64,000 nt of DNA from Eledone cirrhosa (taxonomy: Eukaryota), in contig OZ024760.1 of NCBI GenBank assembly GCA_964016885.1, positions 27,280,001-27,344,000 of the forward strand, written 5' to 3'. Positions 18,559-60,806 of this stretch are shown here, in pieces. The position numbers and the translations under genes are program-made. The notes under the pieces are model-generated. The model did no database searches and was not told where the DNA came from. It saw nothing but the letters and a program-made list of their open reading frames with translations. Every line of letters begins with the position of its first letter. Position 1 is the first letter of the stretch.

Positions 18559-20633
18559 AGTATATGTTGGTTGTATACCAACACCTCAGTATGCAGGCTG
18601 GAGCACTCGACGAAGTGCGCAGGTTGGTTTGGTTACTCCGGAGTAGTGTAAAATAAAATTAAATAAAAAGTCAAATGATTAAAATTTAGCTTCGTTTATT
18701 ACTGCTATATATATTTCAGTGACAGCCATCTTTGGCTGTGACCTCTTCAGGCAGTTTGAATTAGTGTGGTATAGACAAGTACATATGTTGTTGAGGTGTA
18801 TAATATTGTCAATACTCTGATATGCCCAGTTCCTGGTTGGGTTATTTCACTGAGGAACTGGAGTCATATATATATATATAACAACTAGAACATATATATA
18901 ACAACTAGAAATTGATTAACATATAAATAAACATATGAAACAATCACAGGGGATAATTTTTACAAGTGTGCAAGCACACATAGCTAGGTAGGTAACTAAA
19001 TAAAGTTAACTAGAACTTCAAAAATAGATACCTTATAATATGATTAATCTTCCCTGTATATATTCCATTAAAGAAATATATTTCTTTAATGTTACCTACC
19101 TATTTAGTTACCTACCTAGCTATGTGTGCTTGCACACTTGTAAAAATTATCCCCTGTGATTGTTTCATATGTTTATTTATATGTTAATCAATTTCTAGTT
19201 GTTATAAAATGCTCGGACCTATTCATTAGAATCTTGGAGCTTATTTTACGGGTGATATGGCGCATGCCTTTCTGGCATGACACCCATAATTTTGATTTAG
19301 ATTAAATTCACTTTGATTTATCTTAATTTTGGATATATATATATATATTCGCATGTTCTCATTATTAGGGTATAAATGTTGAGTTTTCTCATAAGTTAAT
19401 CACTACCTTGATTAAATCTTAACCATCTAACATCTCATCTCAGGGTATTTCATGTATCATTTTATTTTATCTGATGAGGACGTACTGTTGAACCTGATTC
19501 AAGTACATCCGAAATATGTATAATAAAATTTAATTGATCAAAAGAACATCTATTTTATTAATATTTGAATTTTAATATTAATAACTCTGGAAAATATTTT
19601 CTTGTAGAGTGCTTCCAATCTACTGTAAAACTCATTCTTTGATGTACTCATTGAATCTTGTTTAACTCTTTAATATATATATACATATATATATGCCACA
19701 ACTATATATATCTCTGTTACACCTATATATACCTGTCACATATATATATCTATGTCACAACTATATATCTCCATGTCACACCTATATATCTAACTATGCC
19801 ACACCTGTATATATCTCTGTCACACACATATATATATATATCACACCTATATATCTCTATGTCACACCTGTATATATATCTGTCATACTGTCACACATAT
19901 ATCCATGTCACACCTCTATATCTCTGTCACACCTATATATCTCTGTCACACCTGTATATATATGTCAAACTGTCACACATATATCCATGTCACACCTCTA
20001 TATCTCTATGTCACACCTATATATCTGTCATACTGTCACACCTCTATATCTCTGTCACACCTGTATATATCTGTCATACTGTCACACCTCTATATCTCTA
20101 TGTCACACCTGTATATATCTCCATGCCACACCTGTATATATCTAACTATGTCACACCTGTATATATCTCTATGCCGCACCTGTATATATCCCTGTCACAC
20201 ATATATATATGTCACACATATATATATATCACACCTATATATCTAACTATGTCACACCTGTATATATCTAACTATGCCGCACCTGTATATCTATCCCTGT
20301 CACACATATATATATATCACACCTATATATCTAACTATATCACACCTATACCTATATATAAATATATATGTCCTACCTGTCTTCTATTTGCACCTGTGTA
20401 GTTAAACAGAGCAACAGTCCAGAATTCATTGACAGGGAAGTTAGAAACAGCTACCTACCGAATTAGTAAAAGGTAAGTGTTGAGGTAATTTCCTAGTGGT
20501 GGCCATTTCTGGATTTATTATTTTATTAGTCTTCCTTTACCTCTCTCTCTCTCTTTATCTCTTTTCTTCTTTATTTCTCTCTCTCTCTCTTCTTGTCTCA
20601 CATTTTGAGCACACTAATTTATCCGTTCGAGAT

Positions 20634-24979: not shown

Positions 24980-27900
24980 TGAATCTCTCTGTTGAAACAG
25001 CCAGAGCTCAGCTATTGGGGTCCTGATCTTGGACTAACCTTGCATTGGGACACTCTAGCTGAAAGTTTCATTGGGGCATTTAAGTATCATCTATGATAGC
25101 AAAAACATTTATTTGGGGGCCTTTGGAATTATTATTTATGATAGTAAAAATTTATATTCGAGCCCTTTAAATATTGCAGAGCCCAAGGCACGAATATTCC
25201 ATCAAATCCCTTGTGAATTATTATTCACGATAGCAAAACAATTCAGTTGGAGCCTTTTAAATATTGTGAAGGTGCATTTATGAGGTTGAGAGTTCGAATC
25301 CTAGACTGGGATATATATTATGTCCTTGAGCAAGACATTTTATTTCTCATTGCTCTTTCTCTCATGATCTGCAACCTGTAGATAGTACCAGCAATTTACA
25401 GACCAATGGAAACATTGTTTCCTTGGTCCGGTTTGACAAGTTCCACCTTACTAAGTTGGGCGGGGATGAGGTCTGGGATCGTGGGGATCAATTAAAAATA
25501 TATGTAAAGTGGTCGTGTTGGTGACATGACAAAAAGTACCCAGTCCACACTGTAAAGTGGTCGTGTTGGTGACATGACAAAAAGTACCCAGTCCACACTG
25601 TAAAGTGGTTGGCGTTAGGAAGGGCATCCAGCTGTAGAAACCAAGCCAGAAACAGTTCTATGTGAGCAAGACATGGTCACCAGAACCAACTACAGAGCTG
25701 TAGGAGTGAGAAAGTGATATAGAGAAAGAATTGACTCCAGTACTAGACCTGTGCTTTATTTATTGACTTTAAAATAAATAAATAAAGGGAATTTAATCAG
25801 TAACGTAATCCATGATACATTAAAAAAGACGATACTATAACAAACTTTCCAGATGTCTTCCTGTTTCTTCCACAACAACTACAACGGTACGCGATGGGGC
25901 CCACCCACAGCCCCGGGGGACAGAGTGGAGAAGGCGTTTCCCCGGAGGACGGCAAGGGAGACGCGCTGGGAAAGCCACTCCGACTCGCGGGGCTCACACC
26001 TGCAGCTGGCCAGCTCAGCGCCTATGGTGGTGAGTAAGGAGGTAGCCCTGGGGCCGAGGACACCAGAAGTCTCCACTGCTAGGGGTACGACCGCAAACCT
26101 GTCGGAGAGCGACTGGTATTTGAGGAGTTTGGCCCCCTCAGCCTGACGTGCAGCAGAACCTGGGGCAGCAACAGACTGCACCAGGTTGCGGCTGCAGAAA
26201 GTGTCGGTGCAAGTGGCATCCCAGATGAGGTGTTAGCCACCGTGGAACGGGAAGATGGTCATGCCATCTGGCCTTTTGTCATCCCCTCAATCCAGCCCCA
26301 CCGGCTCGAGCTGGGAAAGGAAGCCTGCAGCGTCCAAGCCATGCATAATGGAGGAGGAGGAAAAAGAAAACCTTTTTATGTTATTGGTGTATTATTTATT
26401 TATTTGCAGTGCCTGGTTAAAAGATGGGGAACATGAAATTTTACATAGAATCAACAAAAGAATTGCACATGTCACAGGTCTTAATGTAGAAACTGCTGAA
26501 GAACTCCAGGTGAGATTTTCTTTTGAAATAGAATTCTTTAACCCTTTAGCATTTAAACCGGCCATATCTAGCCAGAATTCTCTCACCTTTTTCTTTTCAA
26601 ACCGGCTGTAACTGTCCACTCATATTTATATTAAGGCATTTTCCTGAAAATAAATAATATCAAAAGCTCGTAGATTCGATATTATGTGGAATAATTATGT
26701 GACGTAAAGCCATTAACGTGAAAAAACAATAGTAAATATAGAGTAATGTAAATGTTAAAGGGTTATAAAATGACTAATAAGTTTCAGAAAGCCAGTACAA
26801 TGAGGTAGAAATATCTAAAGGGTAAAGGATGACAAATAAAACAAAACAAAGTAATGTTTTTACCTAATATATTTCAGGGCTGTCACCCTCTTTTCAAATC
26901 CACCTCTATATATAACTATCAATATAACTCACTGTAAATGGGGTTGGTGTTAGGAAGGGCATCCAGCTGTAGAAATCAAGCCAGAATCAGTTCTGTATGA
27001 GCAAGACAGGGTCACTCTGACCCAACTTGCCTCTAAATGGGACAAACCCATCTAACCCATGTTAGCGTGGAAGATAGACATTAAACGATGATGATGATGA
27101 TGAATCTAATTTCTCCCCACCCCTCTCTCTATAACTATTAATCTATCTAATTTCTCCCCACCGCCTCTCTCTATAACTATTAATCTATCTAATTTCTCTA
27201 CCCCAGGTTGCCAACTATGGTATTGGGGGACATTATGAGCCACATTTTGACTACGCCAGGGTGAGTACATCTCTTTCTTTATTTTGAGCCTCCATTTATT
27301 GCCAGACAGATAAATACACAGATAGAGAGATATAGACAGACATAGTGATACATAGACAGATATAGTGAGATATAGTGACATATAGACAGATATAGTGAGA
27401 TATAGTGAGATATAGACAGACATAGTGAGATATAGACAGACATAGTGAGATATAGACAGATATAGTGAGATATAGACAGACATAGTGAGATATAGACAGA
27501 TATAGTGAGATATAAATAGATATAGTGAGATATAGACAGACATAGTGAGATATAGACAGATATAGTGAGATATAGACAGATATAGTGAGATATAGACAGA
27601 TATAGTGATACATAGACAGACATAGTGAGATATAGACAGATATAGTGAGATATAGACAGACATAATGAGATATAGACAGATATAGTGATACATAGACAGA
27701 TATAGACAGACATAGTGAGATATAGACAGACATAGTGAGATATAGACAGATATAGACAGATATAGTGAGATATAGACAGATATAGTGAGATATAGACAGA
27801 TATAGTGAGATATAAACAGATATAGTGAGATATAGACAGATATAGTGAGATATAAACAGATATAGTGAGATATAGACAGATATAGTGATATATAGACAGA

Positions 27901-31828: not shown

Positions 31829-34306
31829 TGTACGTGTGCATCTGTGTGTATACCAGGACTCATACACTGTTCACTTTCTTGACATTTATACATTATTCTA
31901 TGTACTATACATGCACATTTGATGAGTTGTAGTGCACCTGAGCACTGTACACAATAATTTCATTATTATATTATTATTATAGTCAAGTAGATGAACAGAC
32001 AGATAGAGAAACATAGACACATGGACAAACAGAGATATAGACAGACAGTCAGATAAAACATAAACACATACATATATATCTAGACAAACAGACAGATAGA
32101 GAAAATATGTTATTTTTTAAATATAATTTTACTTTTAATTTCGTTCATGTCCATTTTGTTTGCTAAACTATATATGTACTTTCTTTTTTTTATTTTGGGT
32201 GTGAAAAATAAATCAAGGGAAATTTTTAAAAAATGTTTATTAATTGAGAAATATTCTACACTTTGATCTTAGCCAAAAATCTGAAGGGCCTCCAGCTATA
32301 GAAAACTTGCCCAAGAAAGGGTAAAAAGATTCTTTAGTTGTCTCAAAGATATGACAACGTCCCTAGTGCTGGTAACATGATAAACATTCCTAGTATATTC
32401 TGTACAGTGGTTAATGATAAGAAGAACATCCAGCCATAGAAAACTTGCCAGACAAAGGGTTAAGAGAATTCTTCCGTTGTCTCAAAAACATGACAACCTC
32501 CCAAGCGTTGGTGACATGACAAAACACACCTGGCACACTCTTTAAAGTGTTCAGTGGTAAGGGTATCCAGCCAAAGAGTTGGGAAGACCCTTTAGTTGTG
32601 TCAAAGACATGACAATTTGCTAGTGTTGGTGACACAACAAAATACACCTGGTGCACTCTTTAAAGTGTTCAGTGGTAAGGGTATCCAGCCAAAGGGTTGG
32701 GAAGACCCTTCAGTTGTATCAAAGACATGACAATTTGCTAGTGTTGGTGACACAACAAAATACACCTGGTGCACGCACTCTGTAAAGTGTTTAGGGATAA
32801 AGGTATCCAGCCATAGAAAGCCTGCTAAAGGGTTGAGAAGACCCTTCAGTTGTGACAAGGACATGACAACCTAGCTAGTGTTGGTGAGCTGCATGATAAA
32901 CACACCCAATACATTCTGTAAAGTGGTTGGTGCTAGGAAGGGCATCCAACCATAGAAATCTGTCAGTTCTGTCAAAGACAAGACGCCCTCTCTAGTACTG
33001 GTGACATGATGAAATGCACCTGGTGTACTCTGTAAAATGTTTGGTGGTAGAAAGAGCCTTACTGATGTCACAATAAAGTATACTCCGTAGAGTGCGGCAA
33101 GATATGTAAGCAGGGTCTTTTCGCTTGTCTGAGAGGTTAATAGCTCAGATGACTAACTAAAGACTTGGTCAGCGAAATCTTGCCAAACCCTTACCAACAG
33201 GAAGAACAGATGTTAAACAATGATGATGAGGAGTCTGTCTTAAGCTAGAAGGCTCATCGAGCCGATGCTTATCCCAGTTTCCTGGGGTGAAGCAACTGAA
33301 AGTACAAGACTCTCCCCTGGACAGGACACCAGTCCATCGCAGGGGTAAAGTCTGTGTTAAGCCAGAAGGCTCATCGAGCCGATGGTTATCCCAGTTTCCT
33401 GGGGTGAAGCAACTGAGAGTACAAGACTCTCCCCTGGACAGGACACCAGTCCATCGCAGAGTTAAAGTCTGTGTTAAGCCAGAAGGCTCATTTGGCTGGT
33501 GCTTATCCCGGTTTTGTGGCGTGAAGCGACTGAGAGTAAAAGACTCTCTCCTGGACAGGACACCAGTCCATCGCAGGGGTAAAGTCTGTGTTAAGCCAGA
33601 AGGCTCATTAGGCTGGTGCTTATCCCGGTTTTGTGGTGTGAAGCGACTGAGAGTACAAGACTCTCCCCTGGACAGGACACCAGTCCATCGCAGGGGTAAA
33701 GTCTGTGTTAAGCCAGAAGGCTCATCTTGTGACCGTGGTGATGATGGTGAAGATTAAGACAAGGATGATGGTGATGATGATGAAGAGGACGATGATGAAG
33801 ATGATGATGATGATGACAAATGACAACTGACTCTTTTTTTTTTTTTTTTTTTTTTAATTTATTATATTCTTTGACTTCCTTCATTTAATTCTAAAATATT
33901 CAGTGAAAATTTTCAAGCACTAAACTGCTTTTATATAAGATTTAACCATCGTTAACCATCATTAACCATCATTTGCCATTATTGTTCTGTACAGAAACGG
34001 CAGAAAAGCCCTTTAGAGGATATGGTGGGAAACAGAATAGCTACTTTTCTCTCTTACGTAAGTCTTTCGGTGACCATCCCTACCAATATCTTATATATAT
34101 ATACATGTATATATAAACATATATATATATATGTTTATATATATATGGACTTTGAAGAAAAAATAGGTATATTTGGACCGAGGAATGTTTCCATTGGACT
34201 TTCCAATTACTAATACTATCTGTCGGTCGCAACTCCAGGCAGAAATATATATATATATATATATAATTAGATACATATATATATTATATACATTATATAT
34301 GTTTAC

Positions 34307-34340
<34 letters not shown>

Positions 34341-43262: not shown

Positions 43263-46200
43263 TATGTGTGTATTAGTTGCACCACCATTTTACATACAAC
43301 ATATTTTCAATGTACCATATATTTTGAATTGAAGCTTTCTATGTCCTGCAGATAAGTTGCATGCTAGCTTTTCTTGTTGTAATTTCATTGAAAAAGGTGC
43401 AACTTATACACGTGTATATATTGTATATATTTTTATAAGATGGGAGACACACCATTCTGTGGTATTCATGCCTTTCCAAAAGGCATTAGCCACTTAAGTG
43501 AAGCTTTGTGAAGTGAATAGTACGATATACTCACACAAACACATAAATCTTATGGTATCTGTTCTATGGAAGTACAAAAGCGACATAATGATCTATAATC
43601 TATTATTGTTTAGCCCCAGGTCAGTCCTGAGCAACATCAAGCAGACCTATGATCAAAGGGATCCTACATGTAGATATACATCAACATTTGTCGGATATAA
43701 TATAGTGCGTAATACAATATAATAGAGAATATAGCACATCATATTATTGTAGAATAATTCAGTATATAGAATACTATAGTATATAGAGTACCGTAGTACA
43801 TAATAGTATAGTATCTAAAGGTCTAAACTCTGTGTTAAGCCAGAAGGCTTGTCAGACCATTGCTTATCCCGGTTTCATGGCGTGAAGCGACAGAGAGCAC
43901 ATGACTTGCCCCTGGACAGGACACCAGTCCATCACAAGGCTAAACCCTTCAGCTATTGCTGGACTTCTCCCTGGACAGGACGCCAGTCCATTGCAGGGTT
44001 AAAACCCCAGCTATTGCTGGACTCCTCCCTAGACAGGACGCCAGTCCATCGCAAGGTTAAAACCCTTAGCTATTGCTGGACTCCCCCCTGGACAGGACGC
44101 CAGTCCATCACAGGGCTAAACCCCTTGGCTATTGCTGGACTACTCCTGGACAGGACTCCACTAATAGTATAGTATATAGTACCTTATAGAATATAAATAT
44201 AATATACTATAAAGAATATCAGTATATAGCACAGTTTATAGAATATCATAGTATATATTAGTACATAGTATATATTAGTACATAGAATATATTAGTACAT
44301 AGTATATATTAGTACATAGAATATATAAGGCGTGTGGCTGAGTGGTTAGAGAATTGGATTCACAATCTTGAGGTTGTGAGTTCGAGTCATGGACCGGGCG
44401 ATGCGTTATGTCCTTGACCAAGACATTTTATTTCACGTTGCTCCTTCTACCTGGAGTTGCGACCGATAGATAGTACTAGCAACTGGAAAGACCGATGGAA
44501 ACATTGTTTCCTCGGTCCGATTTGATGAAAGTCGATCGATCCTTTTTATATATTAGTACATAGTATATATTAGTACATAGTATATATTAGTACATAGTAT
44601 ATATTAGTACATAGTATATATTACTACATAGTATATATTAGTACATAGTATATATTAGTACATAGTATATATTACTACATAGTATATATTAGTACATAGT
44701 ATATATTACTACATAGTATATATAAGTACATAGTATATATTACTACATAGTATATATTAGTACATAGTATATATTAGTACATAGTATATATTACTACATA
44801 GTATATATTACTACATAGTATATATTAGTACATAGTATATATTATTACATAGTATATATTAGTACATAGTATATATTACTACATAGTATATATTAGTACA
44901 TAGTATATATTAGTACATAGTATATATTAGTACATAGTATATATTACTACATAGTATATATTAGTGCATAGTATATATTAGTACATAGTATATATTACTA
45001 CATAGTATATATTACTACATAGTATATATTAGTACATGGTATATATTAGTACATAGTATATATTAGTACATAGTATATATTAGTACATAGTATATATTAG
45101 TACATAGTATATATTACTACATAGTATATATTAGTACATAGTATATATTACTACATAGTATATATTAGTACATAGTATATATTAGTACATAGTATATATT
45201 AGTACATAGTATATATTAGTACATAGTATATACTAGTACATAGTATATACTAGTACATAGTATATATTAGTACATAGTATATATTACTACATAGTATATA
45301 TTAGTACATAGTATATATTAGTACATAGTATATATTAGTACATAGTATATATTACTACATAGTATATATTACTACATAGTATATATTAGTACATAGTATA
45401 TATTAGTACATAGTATATATTAGTACATAGTATATATTAGTACATAGTATATATTACTACATAGTATATATTAGTACATAGTATATATTAGTACATAGTA
45501 TATATTAGTACATAGTATATATTAGTACATAGTATATATTAGTACATAGTATATATTACTACATAGTATATATTAGTACATAGTATATATTAGTACATAG
45601 TATATATTACTACATAGTATATATTAGTACATAGTATATATTAGTACATAGTATATATTAGTACATAGTATATATTAGTACATAGTATATATTACTACAT
45701 AGTATATATTAGTACATAGTATATATTACTACATAGTATATATTAGTACATAGTATATATTAGTACATAGTATATATTACTACATAGTATATATTACTAC
45801 ATAGTATATATTAGTACATAGTATATATTATTACATAGTATATATTAGTACATAGTATATATTACTACATAGTATATATTAGTACATAGTATATATTATT
45901 ACATAGTATATATTAGTACATAGTATATATTACTACATAGTATATATTACTACATAGTATATATTAGTACATAGTATATATTAGTACATAGTATATATTA
46001 GTACATAGTATATATTAGTACATAGTATATATTAGTACATAGTATATATTAGTACATAGTATATATTACTACATAGTATATATTAGTACATAGTATATAT
46101 TAGTACATAGTATATATTAGTACATAGTATATATTAGTACATAGTATATATTAGTACATAGTATATATTACTACATAGTATATATTAGTACATAGTATAT

Positions 46201-46892
46201 ATTACTACATAGTATATATTAGTACATAGTATATATTACTACATAGTATATATTAGTACATAGTATATATTAGTACATAGTATATATTAGTACATAGTAT
46301 ATATTACTACATAGTATATATTAGTACATAGTATATATTAGTACATTAGAATTTTGATAATTTGAAATTAGTTGTCCATCGAGTGATTGGGGAAATGGCC
46401 GGAGTTATGTCTGTTCTATTCTAAGTACCTCACCTCCTAAGTATATATATAATATAATATATAAGAACAAAAGATGGTTAAAAGAGTTCCATGTATTTTA
46501 TTATGCGCATTTCAAAAACAAATATCATCATGCAATAATATTTGTGTTTTCATCAGATAAAACAGGGAGACATGATATGAAGGTTGAAAAACACTTGTGG
46601 ATAGTGCAGTTTTAAATCAACATATGTTGATTTGTTGATATGTTGATTTAAAACTGCACTATCCACAAGTGTTTTTTAACCTTCATATCATGTCTTCCTG
46701 TTTTATCTGATGAAAACACAAATATTATTGCATGATGATATTTGTTTTTGAAATGCGCATAATAAAATACATGGAACTCTTTTAACTATCTTTTGTTCTT
46801 ATATATTATGTATACTCCAGTCCTACAAACTGTAGAGTGCTTTTTATCCGATATCTGCATTGCTTTATTGTACTACAATAAAACTCACCTCC

Positions 46893-46928
<36 letters not shown>

Positions 46929-49900
46929 GTGAAAAAATGGGGAGAAGAATACTGCAGGTTGCACATGGATAACATGTTATAAAATGAGTCCCTCATCAGT
47001 GATTTGCCAACGATCATAGATATTTCATAATATATATATATATATAATATATATATATGTGTATATATATATATCAGTATAAATATATATCAGTAAAAAT
47101 CTGGGAGGTTATATCTGAAATTGAGCTTGGTATAGGGTTAGTTCATCAACAAATTAGCAAATCATATTTGAGAACAGGTGTTTCACCTGAAGGTGTTATA
47201 TAAATATATATATATATATATAGAAATATTTATAACCATCATCATCATCATCATCACTGTTTAGCGTCCATTTTTCCATGCTTGCATGGGTTAGACAGGT
47301 CAGCCACATTGGGAGGCAAATCTGGTCAGTGTTGGCCACGTTGTACCTTACTTTGACGAGGACAGTAAATTTGGCCCTGGGATTTTACAGTAGCTCCTGT
47401 CAGAAGCAACTGTCTCCAACTAATCCGACTGGATCCCCAAGCGAGACCAGCCAAGCTCATGGATGTTATCCAACCATCTTGCTCAGTCTCTACCCCTGGG
47501 TCTCCTGCCGATTGGTTTTGCTTGTAAAATCTGTCCAGTGATTCTTTCCTGAGACATTCTAACCACATGTCCATAGTATCAGAGCTGTGATCTCTCAGTT
47601 CAGAGAAGTAGCAGCTCTACCTGGAGTGACTCTCTGATCTCCGAGCTACAAATCTGTCCAGTGATTCTTTCCTGAGACATTCTAACCACATGTCCATCGT
47701 ATCAGAGCTGTGATCTCTCAGTTCAGAGAAGTAGCAGCTCTACCTGGAGTGACTATGATCTCCGAGCTACAAATCTGTCCAGTGATTCTTTCCTGAGACA
47801 TTCTAACCACATGCCCATAGTATCAGAGCTGTGATCTCTCAGTTCGGAGAAGTAGCGGCTCTACCTGGAGTGACTCTCTGATCTCCGAGCTACAAATCTG
47901 TCCACTGATTCTTTCCTGAGACATTCTAACCACAAGCCCATAGTATCGGAGCTGTGGTCTCTCAGTTCGGAGAAGTAGCAGCTCTACCTGGAGTGACTCT
48001 CTGATCTCCGAGCTACAAATCTGTCCAGTGATTCTTTCCTGAGACATTCTAACCACATGCCCATAGTATCAGAGCTGTGATCTCTCAGTTCGGAGAAGTA
48101 GTAGCTCTACCTGGAGTGACTCTCTGATCTCCGAGCTACAAATCTGTCCAGTGATTCTTTCCTGAGACATTCTAACCACATGTCCATAGTATCAGAGCTG
48201 TGATCTCTCAGTTCGGAGAAGTAGTAGCTCTACCTGGAGTGACTCTCTGATCTCCGAGCTACAAATCTGTCCAGTGATTCTTTCCTGAGACATTCTAACC
48301 ACATGTCCATCGTATCAGAGCTGTGATCTCTCAGTTCAGAGAAGTAGCAGCTCTACCTGGAGTGACTATGATCTCCGAGCTACAAATCTGTCCAGTGATT
48401 CTTTCCTGAGACATTCTAACCACATGTCCATAGTATCAGAGCTGTGATCTCTCAGTTCGGAGAAGTAACGGCTCTACCTGGAGTGACTCTCTGATCTCCG
48501 AGCTACAAATCTGTCCACTGATTCTTTCCTGAGACATTCTAACCACATGCCCATAGTATCGGAGCTGTGGTCTCTCAGTTCGGAGAAGTAGCAGCTCTAC
48601 CTGGAGTGACTCTCTGATCTCCGAGCTACAAATCTGTCCAGCAATTCTTTCCTAAGACATTCTAACCACATGTTCATAGTATCAGAGCTGTGATCTCTCA
48701 ATTCAGAGAAGTAGTAGCTCTACCTGGAGTGGATCTCTGATCTCCAAGCTACAAATCTGTCCAGTGATTCTTTCCTGAGACATTCTAACCACATGTTCAT
48801 AGTATCACAGTTGTGATCTCTCAATTCGGAGAAGTAGCAGCTCTACCTGGAGTGACTATGATCTCCGAGCTACAAATCTGTTCAGTGATTCTTTCCTGAG
48901 ACATTCTAACCACATGTTCATAGTATCACAGCTGTGATCTCTCAATTCGAAGAAGTAGCAGCTCTACTTGGAGGGACTCTCTGATCTCCAAGCTACGCAC
49001 TCTATTGAGTAACGTTGCTCCAAAGACCCTTCGGAGGAACTCCATTTTGGCCGCTTGTATTCGTGATCGTATTCTATCGGTCATTACCCCCACCGCCTTA
49101 TATATATTTTAGAGAAGGAACTAATTCTATTAATTATGTGTGTGTGTGTGTGCTAATGGCAGAATACTACAATGCAATGCTTTCGTTATTTAGAAGGAAA
49201 AAATAATAATAAAATTCCCAAAAAAGCCTAACTCGGTAGGGTTTCGTATTCAATGACCATTATTATGAGTTCAAATCCCGCCGAGGTCAACTTTGCCTTT
49301 CATCCTTACGGGGTCGATAAAATAAAGAACCAGTAATGTACTGGGTAATTGCTGGCCTTGTGCCAAAAGTAGAAACAATTATTATTATTATTATTATTAT
49401 TATTATAGTTGCATTTATCTTGAATTATGTTCATACGAGTTATCACCAAGTCACAACCAGTGACCTCAAGAGACAACAAGGTCCGCCATGTTCAAGAAAG
49501 AACATACATACAGTCCTTCAGTATTATATCAGGTCTATTTGCATCTATTTTTCGGTCTGTTTGGATGCTAAAGTTCCACAAGATTGAGATGTGATCGTTT
49601 TCAAGTACGGGAGGTGGTTGATGCTCCCACCAATTCTTTTATTAGGGCAGGTCAAAATGCTTACACATTATCCAATGTATGTATTGTGCAGCTCTGTCAT
49701 GCCTGTTAAGGTATTCGGTTGGAGCTATAGGACTGCACATTGAAATTATATGATCAATGGTCTCTGGTTGTTTTTTACATACATGGCATAATGGGTTGCA
49801 TCCATTTTTTATTATGTTGGCTTGATCATTTTTTGTTGGCAGACACTGATCTTGTGCTGATATAATCAGTCCTTCAGTCTCCGATTTCAGTCCAGAGGAT

Positions 49901-52900
49901 GCCAACCACTGATGGGTTAAAGTTTTGTCAACATCAGGATTGTTAGCTCTTTCTGGGTATTTTCCATACAGAGGCTTTTCTTGCCATTTCTTAGCCAGTT
50001 TCTGTAGCAGTTCTTTCTTTGTAGTTACTTTTACCTGCTTTGCTTTTTCTGTGTTTTTCATTTCTGCAGTAAATGGAACTTCTGAAATTTGTAGTCCATT
50101 ACTGTATCTTTGTGCATCTTTTGTAATGGAGTATGATCTTTTGATGCTTTCATGTTTCAAAACGAGTTTGATCATCCAATCATGTGATTCCCTTAGATAT
50201 GTAGATAATCCAATGTTGCAGTTTTCAAAGCAATATCTAACTGGATTAACCCACATCCTCCTTTCTTTCCTAGGGAGATATATTCTATCTGTATCTGCCT
50301 TAGGGTGATGCATTCTGTGCATGGTTAAGAATTTTCTAATTTTTGTATCGAGCCTACGGATCTCTTTGCTTGACCAGTTGATGACATTGAAACTGTAGGT
50401 TACTACTGGTATGGCAAGCGTATTTATGGCATCGATCCTATTCTTTAAATGGAAAGTTTGTTCAAATGAACATCAAGCCACTACCTGCAGCCTCAGATAT
50501 TCAGGACGTATCGGAGGGTTGTTGCTGTTCCCAGCAAACATGCCTCTTGAAGTGCTCCAAAAAAGAGGGCTGGACTAATTTCCTTTAATATTATTATAAT
50601 TTCCTTTAATATTATTATTATTATTATTATTTATATCATTACTACATTTTTTTTTTATCAAAATTTTAAAAAATATATACATATTTTTTATCGATTTATT
50701 TTTTCCCTTCACATTGCATGTGATAACTTTCCACAACTAATCTTTCCAAAAAAGAAAGAAAGAAAGAACAAAAAAAAAATACTAACTGCAAATTAGGGGG
50801 AAAAAAAAAATTAAAAAAAAATTATTAAAAAGCGCAGCAAAAAAAAAAATTAAAATGTCGCATATTTTATCTCCCTTTCACGTCTGTCTTCCCTTTTATA
50901 AGAAAGAAGAAAAAAATGCCTTCAAGAGACTGGGTACAGGAAACAGGATAGCAACATTTTTAACATATGTAAGTCTACACAATGTTTGTTAACACTTTAG
51001 CATCTAAGCCAGCTGTATCCGGCCAGAATTTTCTCACCTCTTTCTGTTCAAACTGGCCATAACTGGCAGCTCATACTGATGCTAAGGTATTGTTCTCAAA
51101 ATAAATAACATCAAAATCTCGTAGATTCGATATTATGTGAGATATTATGTGAGGTAAATCCTTTACTGTGAAAATACAATAGTATATATAGAGTAATGTA
51201 AATGTTGTGAGATATTATGTGAGGTAAAGCCTTTACTGTGAAAATACAATAGTATATATAGAGTAATGTAAATGTTGTGAGATATTATGTGAGGTAAAGC
51301 CTTTACTGTGAAAATACAATAGTATATATAGAGTAATGTAAATGTTGTGAGATATTATGTGAGGTAAAGCCTTTACTGTGAAAATACAATAGTATATATA
51401 GAGTAATGTAAATGTTGTGAGATATTATGTGAGGTAAAGCCTTTACTGTGAAAATACAATAGTATATATAGAGTAATGTAAATGCTAAAGGGTAAAATAG
51501 TCACAATTTTTATATCTGTCAATTCTACACAACATTTTAAATATGTGTAAGTCTATGCATTTGTTAAAATAGTAACATTTTTAACATGTGTAAGTCTACG
51601 CATTTAAGATAGCAACATTTCCATCACCTTCAAAACCATAATAATAATAATAATAATAATTGTATCTACTTTTGGCATAAGGCCAGCAATTATCTCAGTG
51701 TATTACTGGTACTTTATTTTATCGACCCCGTAAGGATGAAAGGCAAAGTTAACCTCGGCAGGGTTTGAACTACGCTGCAAAGCATGGCATCCAACGCTCT
51801 ACCAATTCTGCCAATTCATAATAATACTAATAATACATATATCTTTTATTTGCCACAAGGGCCAACAAAGGGGTGGGGGCAATACAGGATGAGTGGGGGA
51901 GGTACACTGAAATAGAGTAGAAAGAAATTAACAAACAAATAATGAAAATACCCCAATAGGTTTGGGGGGAGGCACTCAGGGGTGACTTAGGTACCCTACC
52001 AATCCTAAACGACCTGACACTTGAAGGGCACTTTAGGAGTGCACCCCCTCTCCTCTTTGTATCAGCCAGCTTGTAGGTGTATACTCAGAGTTGGCCCATT
52101 CACACGAGCCATTCTTGCAACATTCATCCACCTTTTAGAAAATATACGGGGTGGGGGTAACATTTCTCTCTCCACCCTCACCTTCCTTTCCAGGTGAAAC
52201 TTGAAAAAGTTGATGAGGGATTGGCCAAAGACAAACGTGTCCATCTTCAGTCCTTTCAACCTGGTCCACCATATAACCTCTTTCACTATGGCCACCAGAC
52301 AGAGGAAAACTGCCTGCCCTTCCCAGTGTAAAGTTGGCAGCAGGTTGATCTTCACTTTGGACTCATTCATTAGCTGTATCAGTTCTACACATGACAATAG
52401 CTGTTCGACATAACTCCACAAGTCAGTAATGCACGGACACTGGACGAGTGTATGCAGAACGGTTTCATCACTGCGCATATCTTGGACTGGTTCGTCTGAC
52501 AACACTTCCGTGCCTGTAGAGTTTATCTCAAACCGAGAGTGTGCCCCCCCTGGTAGCACTGCCAAGCGAGGGATTTCTGGAAATTATTCACAGTCCCCAG
52601 TGGAATCCTGGGAATGCGGACTTTAACAGTTCTTTTTCCCAGAATGGGGGTGGATATAATTACCCCAGTGCATTACTGGTACTTTATTTTATTAACCTCG
52701 TAAGGATGAAAGGGATACCATTGCTGGTTTTGCAAGGGGTTACTGTAAAGTCCTCCAGAACAGATTAGTGAGTCAATTTTGTCAATACCCAGTGGCTCTC
52801 CAAGTGAGTTGTAGCACTTTCCCACCACTAATCTTCTATAGAACTCAAGAGTGGCAGTAATAATACTAATATAATATATTAAAAACAAGTGTTTTTCAGA

Positions 52901-57221: not shown

Positions 57222-60200
57222 TACATCTGTCCTGTGTTTTGTATGTTTTTCTGTTGTCTTCACCCAACTTTTTATGAATATACCGTATTTCCCGGCGCCG
57301 AAGATACTTCGTCCTCGAGGACCCACCCTAATTTTGACAACCAAAAATTTCAAAATAATAATAAACAACCTTCGGCCTCCAGGTCACTTGGTAGATTTTT
57401 GAGACTTATTTTATGAAAAAAGTAGCATCTTCGACACCAGGAAATGCGGTATATATGTATGTATGTATGTGTGTGTATATATATATATATTATATATATA
57501 TATATATTTGAGTTTTTGTTTCAAAAGCCAATGTTGTGTGTGTGGTTTTGTAGTTTAAGTGTTTAAACATGTTTTTGAGTATGTGTTTGCGTGTAGCCAA
57601 ACCAAACGTTTAAAAAAAATTGATCAGATCCGCATGAAAAACAAATAGTTGAGTTAGTGTTAAGATACCTATTCAATTAAGAGTTTCATGAAAACATTCC
57701 ACCAAAAGCTAAATAGAAAGAATCATGCAATGAGAAGAGTTTAAATTGTAATATTTATTTAATGACCTTGTTGATTAATTATTTAAATCATAACTACGTA
57801 ATGGGAGACAATTCAGGACGTTTTAGTCATATTAGGCCTCCTCAGTGAATAAATCACACCCAGTACATTCTGTAATGTGGTAGTGCGGGTGCCGCAATAA
57901 GATGCACTTTGTATAAATTAAATATATATCTTAACACTAACTTAAACATTTTGTAGAAAATCTTTGAATTAATACACTTGTATCTATTTTTTATTTGTTA
58001 ATCGTAGAAAAAAAAAGAAAAACAACTTTTAAATAACTTAAAAGCTTATACAAAGCATGTGATGAAATGAAATGAAGGGTTTCATTCAAAACTTTCAGGC
58101 TTTCATGTCGTAGGAAAGAATCTTACATGATTCTTACACTGAAAGGTTTTTAAGACGGACTGAAAATTTTGAATAAAATACCAGGTTTTATTTCTTAATA
58201 TACATTGTTTGGACTTTGATTTCATTGAAAAGTTGTTATTATATTGTGACAGTACTTTCAAAACTGCCTTGAAACTTACCGTATTTCCCAGCGCTGAAGA
58301 CGCTTCATCCTCAAGAACACACCCTAATTTTGAAAAAAAATAATAAACAACCTTCGGCCTCCAGGTCACATGGTAGATTTTTGAGACTTATTTTAGGGAA
58401 AAAGTAGCGTCTTCGATACTGGGAAATACGGTATTTCATAAGAAAAAAAAGAGAGAGAGAAAAATAAACAAACGTTTTTAACCTTTTTGATACCAACTCA
58501 CCAAATCTTACCTCTGTTTTTACAAAACAAAACCTCCCATTTTAAAGGTTTGCTTTTCATATCAGCCTGGTCAAACCTAGCTCTGATTCTATGAAACAAA
58601 CCTTTCATTTTAAAGGGGTCCTATTTAAATTTAAATATTTCAACATAATTTGACACAAGAACCTTTTGTTAAATTATGTTACAAATACTATTGTAATAAT
58701 GAAATAATTAATTATTTCAGTGAATCCCACCCAATTATTAATTAATTTATTTAATTATTGTGTATTTCATTAAAAATTTGGTAACAAAAAGGTTAAAGTT
58801 AGTTTGTGCTGTTTAAAAACATAAAAATAATTGTTTCTAACAGACACAATACCAGAAATATGAGGTGGGGGAGAGGGTAGTCAATTATATCGACCCAAGT
58901 ACATAACTGGTACTTTATTTTATCAATCCTGGGGGAATAAAAGGTAAAGTTAACTTTGGCAGGATTTAAACTGAACATAAAAAACAGATGAAAGAAATGC
59001 CACTCGATATTTTGCCTTCAGACAAAATATCTTGTGGTACTTGTTCAAATCCCGCCACGGTCAACTTCGCCTTTAACCCTTCCAGGGTCAATAAACTGAA
59101 GTAAAAGTCAAGTACTGGTGAGTGGGGGCAATATAACTAGCTGCCACCTCCCCCTAGAATTACTGTCTTTGTGTCAAAATTAGAAACAATTATCATTATT
59201 GTTGTTATTGTTGTTGTTCAATTGTGATAAATTTATATTTTTAAAATCGATAACCTGTAATGGTGAGGTGTTCAATAATTCAATACATTTCTGCAGATGT
59301 CTGATATTCCAAGCGGTGGAGCTACAGTTTTCCCTTACATTGGGCTCAAGTTATTCCCCAAAAAAGTAAGAATATTTTCATTTATTCATCACCGTTCTAC
59401 GTCCGTTCTTCCATACTAGCATGGGTTAGACGGGTTGTCCTGTTGTGGGCAGTGTCTGGTCGGCTGACCATGCCTTGCTCATACAGGAACTGATTTGGCT
59501 TGATTTCTACAGCTGGATGCCCTTCCTAACACCAACCTCATTTACAGTGAGTGCTGGGTGCTTTTTCGTGGTGCCTACACGTCCACTTTACAGTGTGGGC
59601 TGGGTGCTTTTTTGCCGTGGCACCTCCACGACCACCTTGCGGTGGGGAGTGTGGGGGTATATTGTCTATATGCTTCAGCTTGTACCCATGGGAGGTCGGG
59701 TACTCTGTATATTATTATACAAAAAAAACATTAAAATAAAAAAATAAAGCAAGAAAGAAATCATTATTATTTGTCTGAGTGGTGAATTGGCAGTATTGGT
59801 AGAGGGTTGGACGCCATGCTTTCTAGCATAGTTACGTCCCTTTACAGTCTGAGTTCAAATCCCGCCGAGGTTACGGGGTCGATAAAATAAAGTACCAGTA
59901 ACGCATTGGGGGCGATTTAATCGACTTTCCCCTTCCTCAAAAATGATTGGCGTTGTGCCTATACTAGAAATTATTTGGCAGTATCGGTAGAGGGTCGGAC
60001 GCCATGTTTTGCAGCATAGAGTTACGGCCCTTTATGATTTGGGTTCAAATCCCGCTAAGGTTAACTTTGCCTATCATCCTTACAGGGTTGATAAAATAAA
60101 GTACCAGTCACGTACTGGGGTTGATTTAATCGACTTTCCCCTCTCCCAAATTACTGGCCTTGTGCCTATAACTAGAAATCATTATTGCCGAGGTTAACTT

Positions 60201-60742
60201 TGCCTTTCATCCTTACGGGGTCGATAAAATAAAGTACCAGTAATACACTGAGTAATTGCTGGCCTTGTGCCAAAAGTAGAAATTATTATTATTATGGTTT
60301 TGGCGGTATCGGTAGAGGGTCGGACGCCATGCTTTGACGCATAGAGTTACGGCCCTTGCCATTCTGAGTTCAAATCTCGTTGAGGTTAACTTTGCCTTTC
60401 ATCCTTTACGGGGTCGATAAAATAAAGTACCAGTAATGTACTGGGTAATTGCTGGCCTTGTGCCAAAAGTAGAAACAATTATTATTATTATTATGGTTTT
60501 GAAGGTGGTGGATTAACAAATTTAATTTAATGTTTGAAGAAATCTCACTAACTTTTACTTTGACCTGTTACCAGGGTACAGCTGCGTTCTGGTACAACCT
60601 ACACAGGAATGGTGAAGGAATCTTTAACACGCGACACGCTGCATGCCCCGTGCTGGTTGGAAACAAATGGGTGATGAACAAATGGATTCACGAACGAGGC
60701 CAGGAGTTCCGACGAAAGTGCAGTGTAAACCCTGACCTATAG
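8576..60742 (+). CDS. P4HA: Collagen prolyl 4-hydroxylase alpha subunit (P4HA1/P4HA2-like), 5'-partial; join 8576-8736,12953-13004,16123-16316,17984-18157,20402-20472,26410-26509,27207-27260,[33995-34057|40664-40726|50903-50968],59297-59365,60575-60742
   Basis: Manual splicing gives one open frame with AG/GT boundaries and matching phases. It contains family motifs [28 protein letters not shown]...[42 protein letters not shown] and [27 protein letters not shown]. Confidence 0.96.
9109..9329. mobile_element. hAT-like MITE
   Basis: Ends tagggtttttcaaactg / cagtttgaaaaaggcca; 8-bp flanks ccctaggg / ccctagga. Confidence 0.55.
9543..9950 (-). mobile_element. Two tandem copies of tRNA-derived SINE family 1
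   Basis: Reverse complement of ggcggtggattagtagtatcggtagagggtcggacg...gagttcaaatcccgccgaggttgactttgcctttcatcc...gtagaaacaattatt (B-box-like gagttcaaatccc). Other copies: 18238-18410(+), 21028-21406(-, x2), 24288-24432, 31601-31788(+), 38318-38700(+, x2), 49266-49385, 51655-51815(-), 61560-61700. Confidence 0.85.
10923..11291. repeat. Essentially perfect palindrome, ~181-bp arms, loop of 7 nt or less (Penelope-like family B)
   Basis: Centre aaaagttgat-ttggcag-atcaactttt at ~11107; arms checked by eye. Confidence 0.92.
11183..11248 (+). ncRNA. Minimal type I hammerhead ribozyme (family B); mirror copy on - strand at ~10966-11031
   Basis: attttgt-CTGAGGA-[aggcatagcatatt/aatatgatatccct]-GAAA-TATATA-TA-atgaaat; stem I pairs with two G-U. 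Confidence 0.78.
12953..13004 (+). CDS. P4HA: P4HA exon: [17 protein letters not shown](D)
   Basis: Polypyrimidine tract + ttcag| and |gtaagt; 52 nt, phase 0 to 1. Confidence 0.92.
13122..13966. repeat. 65-bp minisatellite, ~13 copies, derived from the SINE family 2 tail
   Basis: Period 65 (13261, 13326); unit matches single copies at ~25380-25440 and ~44467-44525. Confidence 0.9.
14225..15890. repeat. 45-bp minisatellite, ~37 copies, inside a - strand LINE remnant
   Basis: Unit ccttccactgagatttctgcccaggtcttccttctagtgcaactt; one shortened unit near 14800. Confidence 0.92.
16123..16316 (+). CDS. P4HA: P4HA exon: [18 protein letters not shown]...[15 protein letters not shown]
   Basis: ttttgcag| and |gtgagt; 194 nt, phase 1 to 0; P.HQRA.N and YE.LCRGE motifs. 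Confidence 0.94.
16317..16613. repeat. (AGT/GGT)n microsatellite starting at the donor site
   Basis: Direct reading. Confidence 0.9.
16659..17635 (+). mobile_element. Non-autonomous hAT (Charlie-like) element with internal 55-bp tandem array (~10 copies, 16798-17352)
   Basis: TIRs caggggtgttcaac / gctgcatacccctg; perfect 8-bp TSD ccttagac (16651-16658, 17636-17643). Confidence 0.88.
17984..18157 (+). CDS. P4HA: P4HA exon: [58 protein letters not shown]
   Basis: ttccag| and |gtaagt; 174 nt, phase 0-0; absent from the ORF track. Confidence 0.94.
18701..18755 (-). ncRNA. Minimal type I hammerhead ribozyme (family C)
   Basis: Reverse complement: actgc-CTGAAGA-[ggtcacagcca/tggctgtcact]-GAAA-TATATA-TA-gcagt; stem I actgc/gcagt is perfect. 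Confidence 0.82.
18897..19672 (+). mobile_element. Penelope-like fragment, family D, with 5' inverted duplication (arms 18897-19002 and 19101-19206)
   Basis: ~105-bp inverted arms, hammerhead at 19464, (TA)n flanks; partial copy at ~55595-55700. Confidence 0.7.
19464..19529 (+). ncRNA. Minimal type I hammerhead ribozyme (family D)
   Basis: attttat-CTGATGA-[ggacgtac...gtacatcc]-GAAA-TATGTA-TA-ataaaat; 7-bp perfect stem I. Confidence 0.82.
19690..20395. repeat. Degenerate gtcacacct(at)n minisatellite running up to the acceptor site
   Basis: Direct reading. Confidence 0.85.
20402..20472 (+). CDS. P4HA: P4HA exon: [23 protein letters not shown](S)
   Basis: tgtag| and |gtaagt; 71 nt, phase 0 to 2. 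Confidence 0.95.
25865..26340 (-). mobile_element. CRE-like non-LTR retrotransposon 3' end (restriction-like endonuclease), pseudogenised; related pieces at 22300-22400 and 23180-23480
   Basis: Minus strand reads [27 protein letters not shown]...KLLKY...LAVETSG...[12 protein letters not shown]. Confidence 0.75.
26410..26509 (+). CDS. P4HA: P4HA exon: (S)[33 protein letters not shown]
   Basis: tttgcag| and |gtgaga; 100 nt, phase 2 to 0. Confidence 0.95.
26542..26762 (+). mobile_element. piggyBac-like MITE
   Basis: TTAA-ccctttagcattta...taaatgttaaaggg-TTAT. Confidence 0.8.
27207..27260 (+). CDS. P4HA: P4HA exon with Fe(II)-binding HxD: [18 protein letters not shown]
   Basis: ccccag| and |gtgagt; 54 nt, phase 0-0. 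Confidence 0.96.
27310..30300. repeat. ~3-kb satellite of 20-bp unit (TATAGTGAGA TATAGACAGA)n
   Basis: Direct reading; two alternating 10-mers, ~150 units. Confidence 0.95.
30480..31220 (-). mobile_element. L1/Tx1-like LINE 3' fragment
   Basis: [15 protein letters not shown] zinc-knuckle-like motif, [12 protein letters not shown]; 3' end gtggcaaataaagaaagat merges into the satellite. Confidence 0.72.
33240..33725. repeat. Four tandem ~121-bp copies of a SINE fragment (same family at 39880-40460 and 43825-44160)
   Basis: Unit aagccagaaggctcat...tcccctggacaggacaccagtccatcgcaggggtaaagtctgtgtt. Confidence 0.82.
33995..34057 (+). CDS. P4HA: P4HA alternative exon A: [21 protein letters not shown]
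   Basis: ttgttctgtacag| and TAC|gtaagt; 63 nt, phase 0-0, no stop, GNRIAT motif. Confidence 0.85.
34662..35486 (+). mobile_element. piggyBac-like MITE with internal 72-bp array (~9 copies), right end lost
   Basis: TTAA-ccctttagcattta start; 24-codon periodicity in overlapping ORFs. Confidence 0.8.
36035..37143. repeat. (CATA)n/(CA)n microsatellites flanking a ~400-bp dispersed repeat (36240-36645; related copy ~56328-56660)
   Basis: Direct reading; shared gcaca.agccagtcccactctct motif. Confidence 0.8.
37370..38310. repeat. 70-bp array (~7 copies, 37370-37900) followed by ~108-bp array (3 copies, ~38000-38310)
   Basis: Periodic acttaacaaagg...tagataaatataa units. Confidence 0.85.
39400..39616 (+). 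mobile_element. piggyBac-like MITE, complete 217-bp copy
   Basis: TTAA-ccctatagcattta...taaatgttaaaggg-TTAA: TTAA on both sides with CCC...GGG ends. Confidence 0.88.
40664..40726 (+). CDS. P4HA: P4HA alternative exon B: [21 protein letters not shown]
   Basis: atcttgcag| and TAC|gtaagt; 63 nt, phase 0-0, no stop, GNRIAT motif. Confidence 0.87.
41190..41810 (-). mobile_element. Second copy of the hAT element at 16659, without the array, carrying a nested Tc2/pogo-like MITE (~41272-41430)
   Basis: End ...gttgcacacccctg; flanks gtttagat / gtttagac; reverse-complement identity to 16659-17635. Confidence 0.82.
42820..42898 (+). ncRNA. Degenerate hammerhead motif (family E)
   Basis: gctgt-CTGAAGG-...-GAAA-tgtgta-TC-acagc; stem I intact, core A9 changed to G and stem II disrupted. 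Confidence 0.45.
44329..44545 (+). mobile_element. tRNA-derived SINE family 2 (other copies ~25280-25445, ~54975-55125, ~56060-56200(-), ~40320-40460(-))
   Basis: A-box-like tggctgagtgg, B-box-like gagttcgagtc, core tgtccttga.caagaca. Confidence 0.8.
44546..46345. repeat. 17-bp minisatellite (tagtatatattagtaca)n, ~105 copies; a few units also at 44245-44328
   Basis: Period 17 (44561, 44578). Confidence 0.95.
46455..46896 (+). mobile_element. Penelope-like family A copy with ~170-bp 5' inversion (palindrome 46455-46808)
   Basis: Arms are near-perfect reverse complements; unique tail to cctcctac + (TA)n. Confidence 0.8.
46699..46769 (+). ncRNA. Minimal type I hammerhead ribozyme (family A); mirror copy on - strand at ~46493-46565
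   Basis: Same as the 3316 motif with a 3-nt longer stem II; lies within a 350-bp foldback. Confidence 0.8.
47237..48997 (-). mobile_element. RTE-like LINE 3' end whose coding segment is amplified as a ~123-bp array (~12 copies, 47527-48997)
   Basis: (CAT)n tail at 47237; unit resembles [32 protein letters not shown] on the - strand, mostly with a stop. Confidence 0.85.
49430..50460 (-). mobile_element. R4/Dong-like non-LTR retrotransposon fragment
   Basis: [31 protein letters not shown]....ETIDHII..C...APTEY.NRHD motifs; frameshifted. Confidence 0.8.
50903..50968 (+). CDS. P4HA: P4HA alternative exon C (canonical type): [22 protein letters not shown]
   Basis: Long polypyrimidine tract + ataag| and TAT|gtaagt; 66 nt, phase 0-0; closest to the vertebrate [12 protein letters not shown] form. 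Confidence 0.92.
50993..51492 (+). mobile_element. piggyBac-like MITE with internal 70-bp array (5 copies)
   Basis: TTAA-cactttagcatcta...taaatgctaaaggg-TAAA; period 70 (51181, 51251...). Confidence 0.82.
51840..52620 (-). mobile_element. L1/Tx1-like LINE 3' fragment related to 30480-31220
   Basis: [37 protein letters not shown]. Confidence 0.72.
53452..54210. mobile_element. hAT-like element with two internal minisatellites (~22-bp, 53467-53847; ~40-bp, 53940-54192)
   Basis: TIRs cagacatgtcaaa / tttgacatgcctg; flanks gtagagga / gtataggg (6 of 8 match). Confidence 0.65.
56907..57043 (+). pseudogene. 5'-truncated tRNA-Glu(TTC)-like sequence (56907-56966) with SINE-like tail
   Basis: tagtggttaggatt-cctgg-ctTTCac-ccagg-cgga-ccggg-ttcgatt-cccgg-catgggaa: anticodon arm, T arm and 3' acceptor strand intact, 5' acceptor strand replaced by (TA)n; tail ends in repeated gtaaaaga. 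Confidence 0.75.
57283..57449. mobile_element. Tc2/pogo-like MITE
   Basis: TA-ccgtatttcccggcgccgaagat...atcttcgacaccaggaaatgcgg-TA. Confidence 0.82.
58279..58431. mobile_element. Tc2/pogo-like MITE, same family (3' half also at 21420-21510)
   Basis: TA-ccgtatttcccagcgctgaagacg...cgtcttcgatactgggaaatacgg-TA. Confidence 0.82.
59297..59365 (+). CDS. P4HA: P4HA exon: [23 protein letters not shown]
   Basis: ttctgcag| and |gtaaga; 69 nt, phase 0-0. Confidence 0.95.
59395..59712 (-). mobile_element. 3' UTR copy of the RTE LINE at 3603-4585
   Basis: High-identity reverse complement of ~4255-4560. Confidence 0.85.
59778..60484 (+). mobile_element. Cluster of 3-4 tandem SINE family 1 copies in the last intron
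   Basis: Repeated ggcagtatcggtagaggg...gagttcaaatccc...gtagaaacaattatt. Confidence 0.85.
60575..60742 (+). CDS. P4HA: P4HA last coding exon with distal His and 2-oxoglutarate-binding Lys: [55 protein letters not shown]
   Basis: CTAAC branch-like site ~60548, accag| acceptor, TAG stop ending 60742. Confidence 0.96.
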   Translation, partial: GTAAFWYNLHRNGEGIFNTRHAACPVLVGNKWVMNKWIHERGQEFRRKCSVNPDL

Positions 60743-60806
60743 GAGACAATTTTAAACACAACACCCCACCACCACCCCCACCCCCACTCAGCTCGCTCCC
60801 CCTGGA

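Follow-up and report, generated by a model that had tools for sequence, protein, structure and literature searches.

A conserved three-exon cassette in the substrate loop of a collagen prolyl 4-hydroxylase alpha subunit gene of the octopod Eledone cirrhosa

The stretch of DNA analyzed here (the window) comprises 64,000 nucleotides (nt) of contig OZ024760.1 in the Eledone cirrhosa assembly GCA_964016885.1 (positions 27,280,001 to 27,344,000, forward strand), and it carries part of a gene encoding the collagen prolyl 4-hydroxylase alpha subunit (P4HA). Using the isoforms of Octopus sinensis as tblastn queries, every coding exon of the gene was placed, in the window and the 60 kb upstream of it. 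A Pfam scan of the O. sinensis orthologue isoforms recovered the P4Ha_N, peptide-substrate-binding (PSB; TPR_P4H) and 2OG-Fe(II) oxygenase domains in that order, and the window exons encode HFD, RHAAC, and NKW (the His-x-Asp...His iron motif and the 2-oxoglutarate-binding Lys), aligned with the structure 7ZSC. By domain order and by these iron and 2-oxoglutarate motifs, the predicted product is a collagen prolyl 4-hydroxylase alpha subunit, and the window proteins are closest to those of Argonauta, Sepia, and Octopus. Toward the 3' end of the gene, three copies of a single loop exon lie between two constitutive exons (coordinates are those of the window):

27207-27260, forward strand: exon with the HxD iron-binding motif, ending ...HFDYAR; constitutive, single copy, common upstream partner of the cassette
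33995-34057, forward strand: exon A, 63 nt, CAG acceptor, GTAAGT donor; short class, loop charge +1; counterpart in O. sinensis isoform X4 (15/21)
40664-40726, forward strand: exon B, 63 nt, CAG acceptor, GTAAGT donor; short class, loop charge -2; counterpart in O. sinensis isoform X3 (16/21)
50903-50968, forward strand: exon C, 66 nt, AAG acceptor, GTAAGT donor; canonical long class, loop charge +2; counterpart in O. sinensis isoforms X1/X2 (21/22)
59297-59365, forward strand: exon downstream of the cassette, starting MSDIPS; constitutive; an RNA-like contig connects it with the last exon
60575-60742, forward strand: last coding exon, encoding the conserved Lys and the distal His of the iron site

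Exons A, B, and C are each in phase 0-0 and contain no stop codon. An initial annotation, made from the sequence alone, had given the places of the three exons, their AG/GTAAGT sites, phases, open frames and peptides, together with the flanking HFDYAR and MSDIPS exons, and all of these were confirmed in the window letters. Scanning the 12 C-terminal residues of each loop peptide against every window position on both strands gave three matches (48, 48, and 45, with a runner-up at 21), so the cassette signal is far above chance, and no fourth complete copy of the loop exon was found in this both-strand scan of the whole window. A genome-wide DNA search with A plus its flanks matched A itself and B only. 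The cassette introns measure 6,734, 6,606, 10,176, and 8,328 nt, which places 6,606 nt between A and B and 10,176 nt between B and C. As homologous tandem exons of the same phase and similar length with intact splice sites, the three form a homologous exon cluster. Their loop parts had been described as basic at the start in A, acidic in B, and canonical in C; the basic start of A and the net charge of B (-2) agree with this, with the correction that C (+2) is the most basic overall and A (+1) is basic at its start only. Behind exon C, at a distance of 560-650 nt, its 3' end is repeated in part (51530-51555, 51569-51599, and 51608-51620). GTAAGT donors are present in two of these partial copies (identities of 23/26 and 29/31), and one copy can be read from an AG upstream of it as an open frame of 99 nt, the start of which is unlike that of exon C; they are probably remnants. 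The cassette introns also hold long minisatellites at 27322-30358 (154 copies of 20 nt), 44547-46346 (106 copies of 17 nt), and 47527-48996 (12 copies of 123 nt).

The exon had been assigned to the betaII-betaIII substrate loop and the strand that follows it, and this placement is supported by the alignment of exon C with the betaII-betaIII segment of 7ZSC and by the structural work in PMC9676403. That work describes the betaII-betaIII region, Arg435-Gly448 of human alpha(II), as one of two substrate-binding loops by analogy to an algal enzyme-peptide complex, with weak density and a position distant from PDI, and reports that alternative splicing of C-P4H-II alters the sequence and length of this loop. 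The same paper, with coordinates in the supplement of PMC8373072, also bears out, for human P4HA2, the homologous exon pair that the initial annotation had placed at this position in vertebrate P4HA2. Preferences for charge at the X position differ between P4HA1 and P4HA2 (PMC12525012), a difference that may be linked to the loop. Both A and B keep the GNRIAT strand, the frame, and the length in two octopods, and including either would be expected to give the substrate tunnel a different shape and charge, with the core strand kept. The locus bears on the role of the loop splice variants of collagen prolyl 4-hydroxylases: three natural loops (+1, -2, and +2) on an identical scaffold, together with two variants of the PSB domain described below, provide a panel for asking which part sets X-Pro-Gly preference.

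All three exons have counterparts among the P4HA RefSeq isoforms X1-X5 of O. sinensis (XP_029649805-808 and XP_036368550), which are automatic gene models without comment. Exon C is found in isoforms X1 and X2, which differ from each other in their PSB exon; the loop exon is of the B type in X3 and of the A type in X4, and X5 lacks one. Peptide identity is 21/22 for C, 16/21 for B with X3 (10/21 with X4), and 15/21 for A with X4 (13/21 with X3); A and B thus differ from their own orthologues at 6 and 5 of 21 residues, with frames and splice sites still open. A MetaClust protein, the one match to a B-region query for short protein fragments, also has an A-type exon, and a protein of full length that resembles those of cephalopods (P0017), with a short exon in place, is encoded on a 2,706-nt Logan contig. 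Because each of the three exons has its O. sinensis counterpart, the three-exon state is, to judge from these alignments, older than the split between the two species, and for the same reason the cassette is neither a mis-assembly nor unannotated. Haplotype mis-assembly had been named beforehand as a way in which the prediction could fail. That the extra exons are an assembly artefact (tandem haplotypes) or dead pseudo-exons might seem to gain from the lack of read cover over the A region in all four of the sequencing runs considered below, a blank that is unreliable since the runs behaving as DNA are blank there too; one-to-one counterparts in an independent species, divergence among the copies far beyond that of alleles, and the restriction of genome-wide matches to A and B make this extremely improbable. 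The supposition that a three-exon invertebrate version was undescribed held in part: we found no paper on an invertebrate or three-exon version in the literature searched (subscription papers lie mostly outside it), and the version is present in the O. sinensis automatic annotation. The locus holds a real, conserved three-exon cassette in the substrate loop, a variant of the known P4HA2-type switch that automatic annotation already contains.

Exons A and B resemble each other beyond their coding sequence. Behind the donors, intron positions +7..+40 are identical at 26/34 sites (shuffle p about 0.002) and the upstream flanks at 25/43 (shuffle p about 0.006), and exon C shares no flank similarity with either. 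Within the exons, codons 11-21 agree at 28/33 nt and codons 2-10 at 11/27 nt, all nine of the latter being non-synonymous. The simplest reading is that A and B are the younger pair: a short and a long exon would be old (molluscs and beyond), the short exon would have been duplicated in tandem a second time with its intron flanks before the split of E. cirrhosa and O. sinensis, and its loop codons would then have diverged fast. Alternatively, both could be ancient molluscan types whose 3' halves and downstream intron were homogenized by gene conversion, in which case the triple would be older than the octopods. The contrast of loop codons at 41% identity with a 3' half at 85% and an intron at 76% would suit such conversion, as would an exon tree of 22 columns that puts the A-type weakly with gastropod and bivalve short exons and the B-type with the rest (support 51/73). 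That tree is essentially unresolved, however, the upstream flanks of A and B are alike too, as expected from duplication of a whole unit, and no non-octopod cluster examined has three variants. We consider gene conversion between older exons quite unlikely and the weaker rival to a second tandem duplication.

How one exon would be chosen over the others is constrained by the architecture. Mutually exclusive splicing may be imposed spatially, by short introns, or by reading frame (PMC6071210), and neither mechanism is applicable here, with kilobase introns and exon lengths (63, 63, and 66 nt) that are all multiples of three. Because intron length and frame cannot force it, exclusive choice would rest on splicing regulators, possibly RNA pairing. 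The O. sinensis models contain one loop exon in four of five cases, none in one, and two in none. Among 299 parsed proteins, a set biased by the searches used to gather it, 217 have one long exon, 71 one short exon, eight two exons, and three none. One two-exon protein (P0235) comes from a 2,433-nt Logan contig and matches a tick model. The initial annotation had held that co-inclusion would be excluded by duplication of a core strand, which was not borne out, given co-inclusion and skip-all models in relatives and an AlphaFold prediction for a two-exon model from Lineus that keeps the core. In this prediction (mean pLDDT 79), residues 449-481, which span the first exon and the second loop, score below 50, the second copy forms the strand at 486-493, and the following core scores mostly 83-94. 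Co-inclusion, as modeled, need not wreck the fold, with the first copy looping out and the core confident, and the choice of a single exon is probably leaky. Three intronic segments were considered as possible selector and docking elements:

34064-34097, forward strand: intronic element behind donor A, 26/34 identical to that behind B; candidate selector or duplication remnant
40733-40766, forward strand: homologous intronic element following donor B
51881-51913, forward strand: weak candidate docking site in a dispersed repeat; in computed folds, its pairing with both elements above is in register

The site at 51881-51913 is the joint best computed partner of the two elements, at -30 kcal/mol with that behind A and -25 with that behind B. 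Among 97 shuffles, four paired as well, and the repeat that contains the site has 40 or more matches in the genome; with this dispersed repeat in view, the site is a weak docking candidate that serves as a lead only. No complement of the 16-mer shared by A and B was found, at up to 3 mismatches, in the window or the 120 kb upstream. A local hairpin common to A and B was also considered, a register-matched 6-bp helix between exon positions 30-35 and intron positions +22..+27 with one compensatory change; it was rejected because its z-scores are weak (-0.5 and -0.2, with nothing better than -1.5 in 9 folds) and constitutive exons give comparable folds.

The last exon of the gene is present in four sequencing runs from a single study, none of them recorded as RNA, and three of these (runs X1-X3) run through introns and behave as DNA. 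In the fourth sequencing run, X4, a 329-nt contig joins 59297-59365 to 60575-60767 and extends 67 nt upstream of 59297. This length fits C (66+1), not A or B (63+1 = 64), and the contig should therefore contain exon C, the additional nucleotide being a single base that the upstream exon and the intron end have in common. With reasonable confidence, we interpret the locus as three intact copies of the loop exon that are likely spliced mostly one at a time, C likely being the default and A and B minor forms that would alter the substrate tunnel. Several observations weigh against this interpretation. Loop identity to O. sinensis is lower for A (6/11) and B (8/11) than for C (12/12), and poorer conservation of these loops also fits weak constraint on the sequence. 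The O. sinensis isoforms with A or B come from automatic models, in a cluster whose O. vulgaris accessions go with the two C forms only. Co-inclusion and skip-all occur in 8/299 and 3/299 of the proteins, respectively. Lastly, in the E. cirrhosa material, which consists of contigs only, no splice junction leading to A or B appeared; contigs drop rare forms, and the missing junctions in themselves say nothing against A and B. A and B could also be real minor exons of nearly neutral effect, left behind by repeated tandem duplication, included at a low level, and tolerated as in-frame additions to a flexible loop. The faster drift of the A and B loops relative to C, the fit of the sole RNA contig to C, the existence of skip-all and co-inclusion models, and a spot that duplicates readily, as seen in the partial copies of the C 3' end and donor 560-650 nt behind C, all accord with near-neutrality. 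It is harder to reconcile with the persistence of frame, length, and GNRIAT strand in both exons across two octopods that match at 186/209 residues over six constitutive catalytic-domain exons (an 11% difference), or with a short variant that recurs in many phyla, the nemertean and amphioxus short exons being alike at 17/21 positions. We regard near-neutrality as unlikely, though it is the rival to which we give the most weight, and we retain the reading of three exons likely spliced mostly singly, C being the predicted default.

Two sets of duplicates emerged when 13 exons of the gene were scanned against each other, namely the loop cassette itself and two exons encoding the beginning of the PSB domain; the hairpin-loop and HxD exons are single:

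8576-8736, forward strand: second member of the PSB exon pair, 161 nt, encoding the beginning of that domain
L002:9758-9918, just upstream of the window: partner in the PSB exon pair, 161 nt
20402-20472, forward strand: hairpin-loop exon, single in this gene; its vertebrate P4HA1 equivalent is duplicated

Both forms of the PSB exon occur in the O. sinensis models (P0021 vs. P0127), and the PF23558 match in the orthologue begins at that same residue. At 161 nt each, the two exons would shift the frame if both were included or both skipped, i.e., the choice between them is enforced by frame. Combined with the loop cassette, the pair allows at most 2 x 3 = 6 single-choice forms, and the gene likely makes up to six enzyme forms. 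Two forms of the PSB exon are also present in Ruditapes, oyster, and Haliotis proteins, and both stand in tandem in a Pinctada model. Elsewhere in the genome is a tandem array of at least two P4HA-like genes, compact and divergent (G000:C7, about 84.51-84.54 Mb; L015-L018), and the one in which the loop exon was found has a single copy of it.

The initial annotation missed both this second cassette and the wide spread of two-exon versions of the loop switch. In 10 molluscan clusters (two of the six one-variant clusters being single-member, and one Haliotis member left out), at least two loop variants were present in four (Sepia, Octopus, Babylonia, and Biomphalaria) and one variant in six. Separate clusters hold short and long forms in Physella and Mytilus, and Trichinella models contain tandem pairs. 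In a second set of 10 clusters, two variants were found in six (Lineus, Ruditapes, Lingula, Branchiostoma, Strongylocentrotus, and Amblyomma) and one in four (lampreys, Photinus, Amphibalanus, and Vanessa). Two-exon versions thus occur in other molluscs, a nemertean, a brachiopod, amphioxus, sea urchin, tick, and Trichinella, with the short exon first in the models of Mytilus, Lineus, and sea urchin, as in E. cirrhosa, and second in that of the tick. No examined cluster outside Octopus has three variants, the clusters being cut at 90% identity and annotation being incomplete. The human P4HA2 event has been catalogued (event 153, with exons of 20 and 22 amino acids) with Vertebrata as its last common ancestor (PMC8373072). 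The distribution of these sequences suggests that the P4HA2-type switch is much older than this published vertebrate date, or that duplication was repeated at the same exon. In a maximum-likelihood tree of 32 exon peptides and 22 columns, from which human exons are absent and three intended rows were left out, one change separates short from long exons (support 46/79; 62% of bootstrap trees) and one of 28 branches is starred. On this essentially unresolved tree, the short exon may have a single origin. Other exons of the family also vary. The HxD exon occurs in two forms or in tandem in P0145/P0261 (lampreys), P0154 and P0185 (bird and alligator P4HA1), and P0005 (Trichinella), and Lingula and amphioxus have hairpin-loop alternatives; several active-site exons of the P4HA family have therefore been duplicated in different lineages. 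A more far-reaching proposal is that the betaII-betaIII switch was ancestral to bilaterians and kept in vertebrate P4HA2, and that octopods expanded it to three exons which, with the independent PSB switch, would yield six enzymes of differing X-Pro-Gly preference, chosen by competing RNA pairing with a repeat-derived docking site behind C. As a whole, we hold this proposal to be speculative and doubtful.

Related systems have been described in P4HA1, in insects, and in human P4HA2. In vertebrate P4HA1, exons 9/10 are homologous alternatives that exchange a substrate-binding loop of this enzyme, an event assigned to Bilateria (PMC9676403, PMC8373072), but this is a different, hairpin loop, whose exon is single in the E. 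cirrhosa gene. In insect three-exon clusters with downstream docking, e.g., 14-3-3zeta (PMC6071210), similar intron stretches lie behind all but the last exon and a candidate partner behind the last, an arrangement resembling that in E. cirrhosa, where in contrast the pairing is computed only, marginal, inside a dispersed repeat, and from a single species. The O. sinensis isoforms X1-X5 show the same three loop variants, the same PSB pair, and a skip-all form, with the loop sequences of A and B having drifted. Exons 12a and 12b of human P4HA2 were reportedly described by Nokelainen in 2001. They occupy the same exon position, after the HxD exon and ending at the Tyr before MSD, and they follow the E. 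cirrhosa order, the short exon (20 amino acids) preceding the long one (22 amino acids), which is the form in 7ZSC and aligns with C. The cassette shares its exon boundaries and its short and long classes with the 12a/12b event, to which it may be related by descent. The human exons are 49 nt apart, short enough for a spatial block, vs. 6,606 and 10,176 nt in E. cirrhosa, where the distance is too great for a block of the human type and makes the locus a test case for the selection of a single exon from three in a mollusc.

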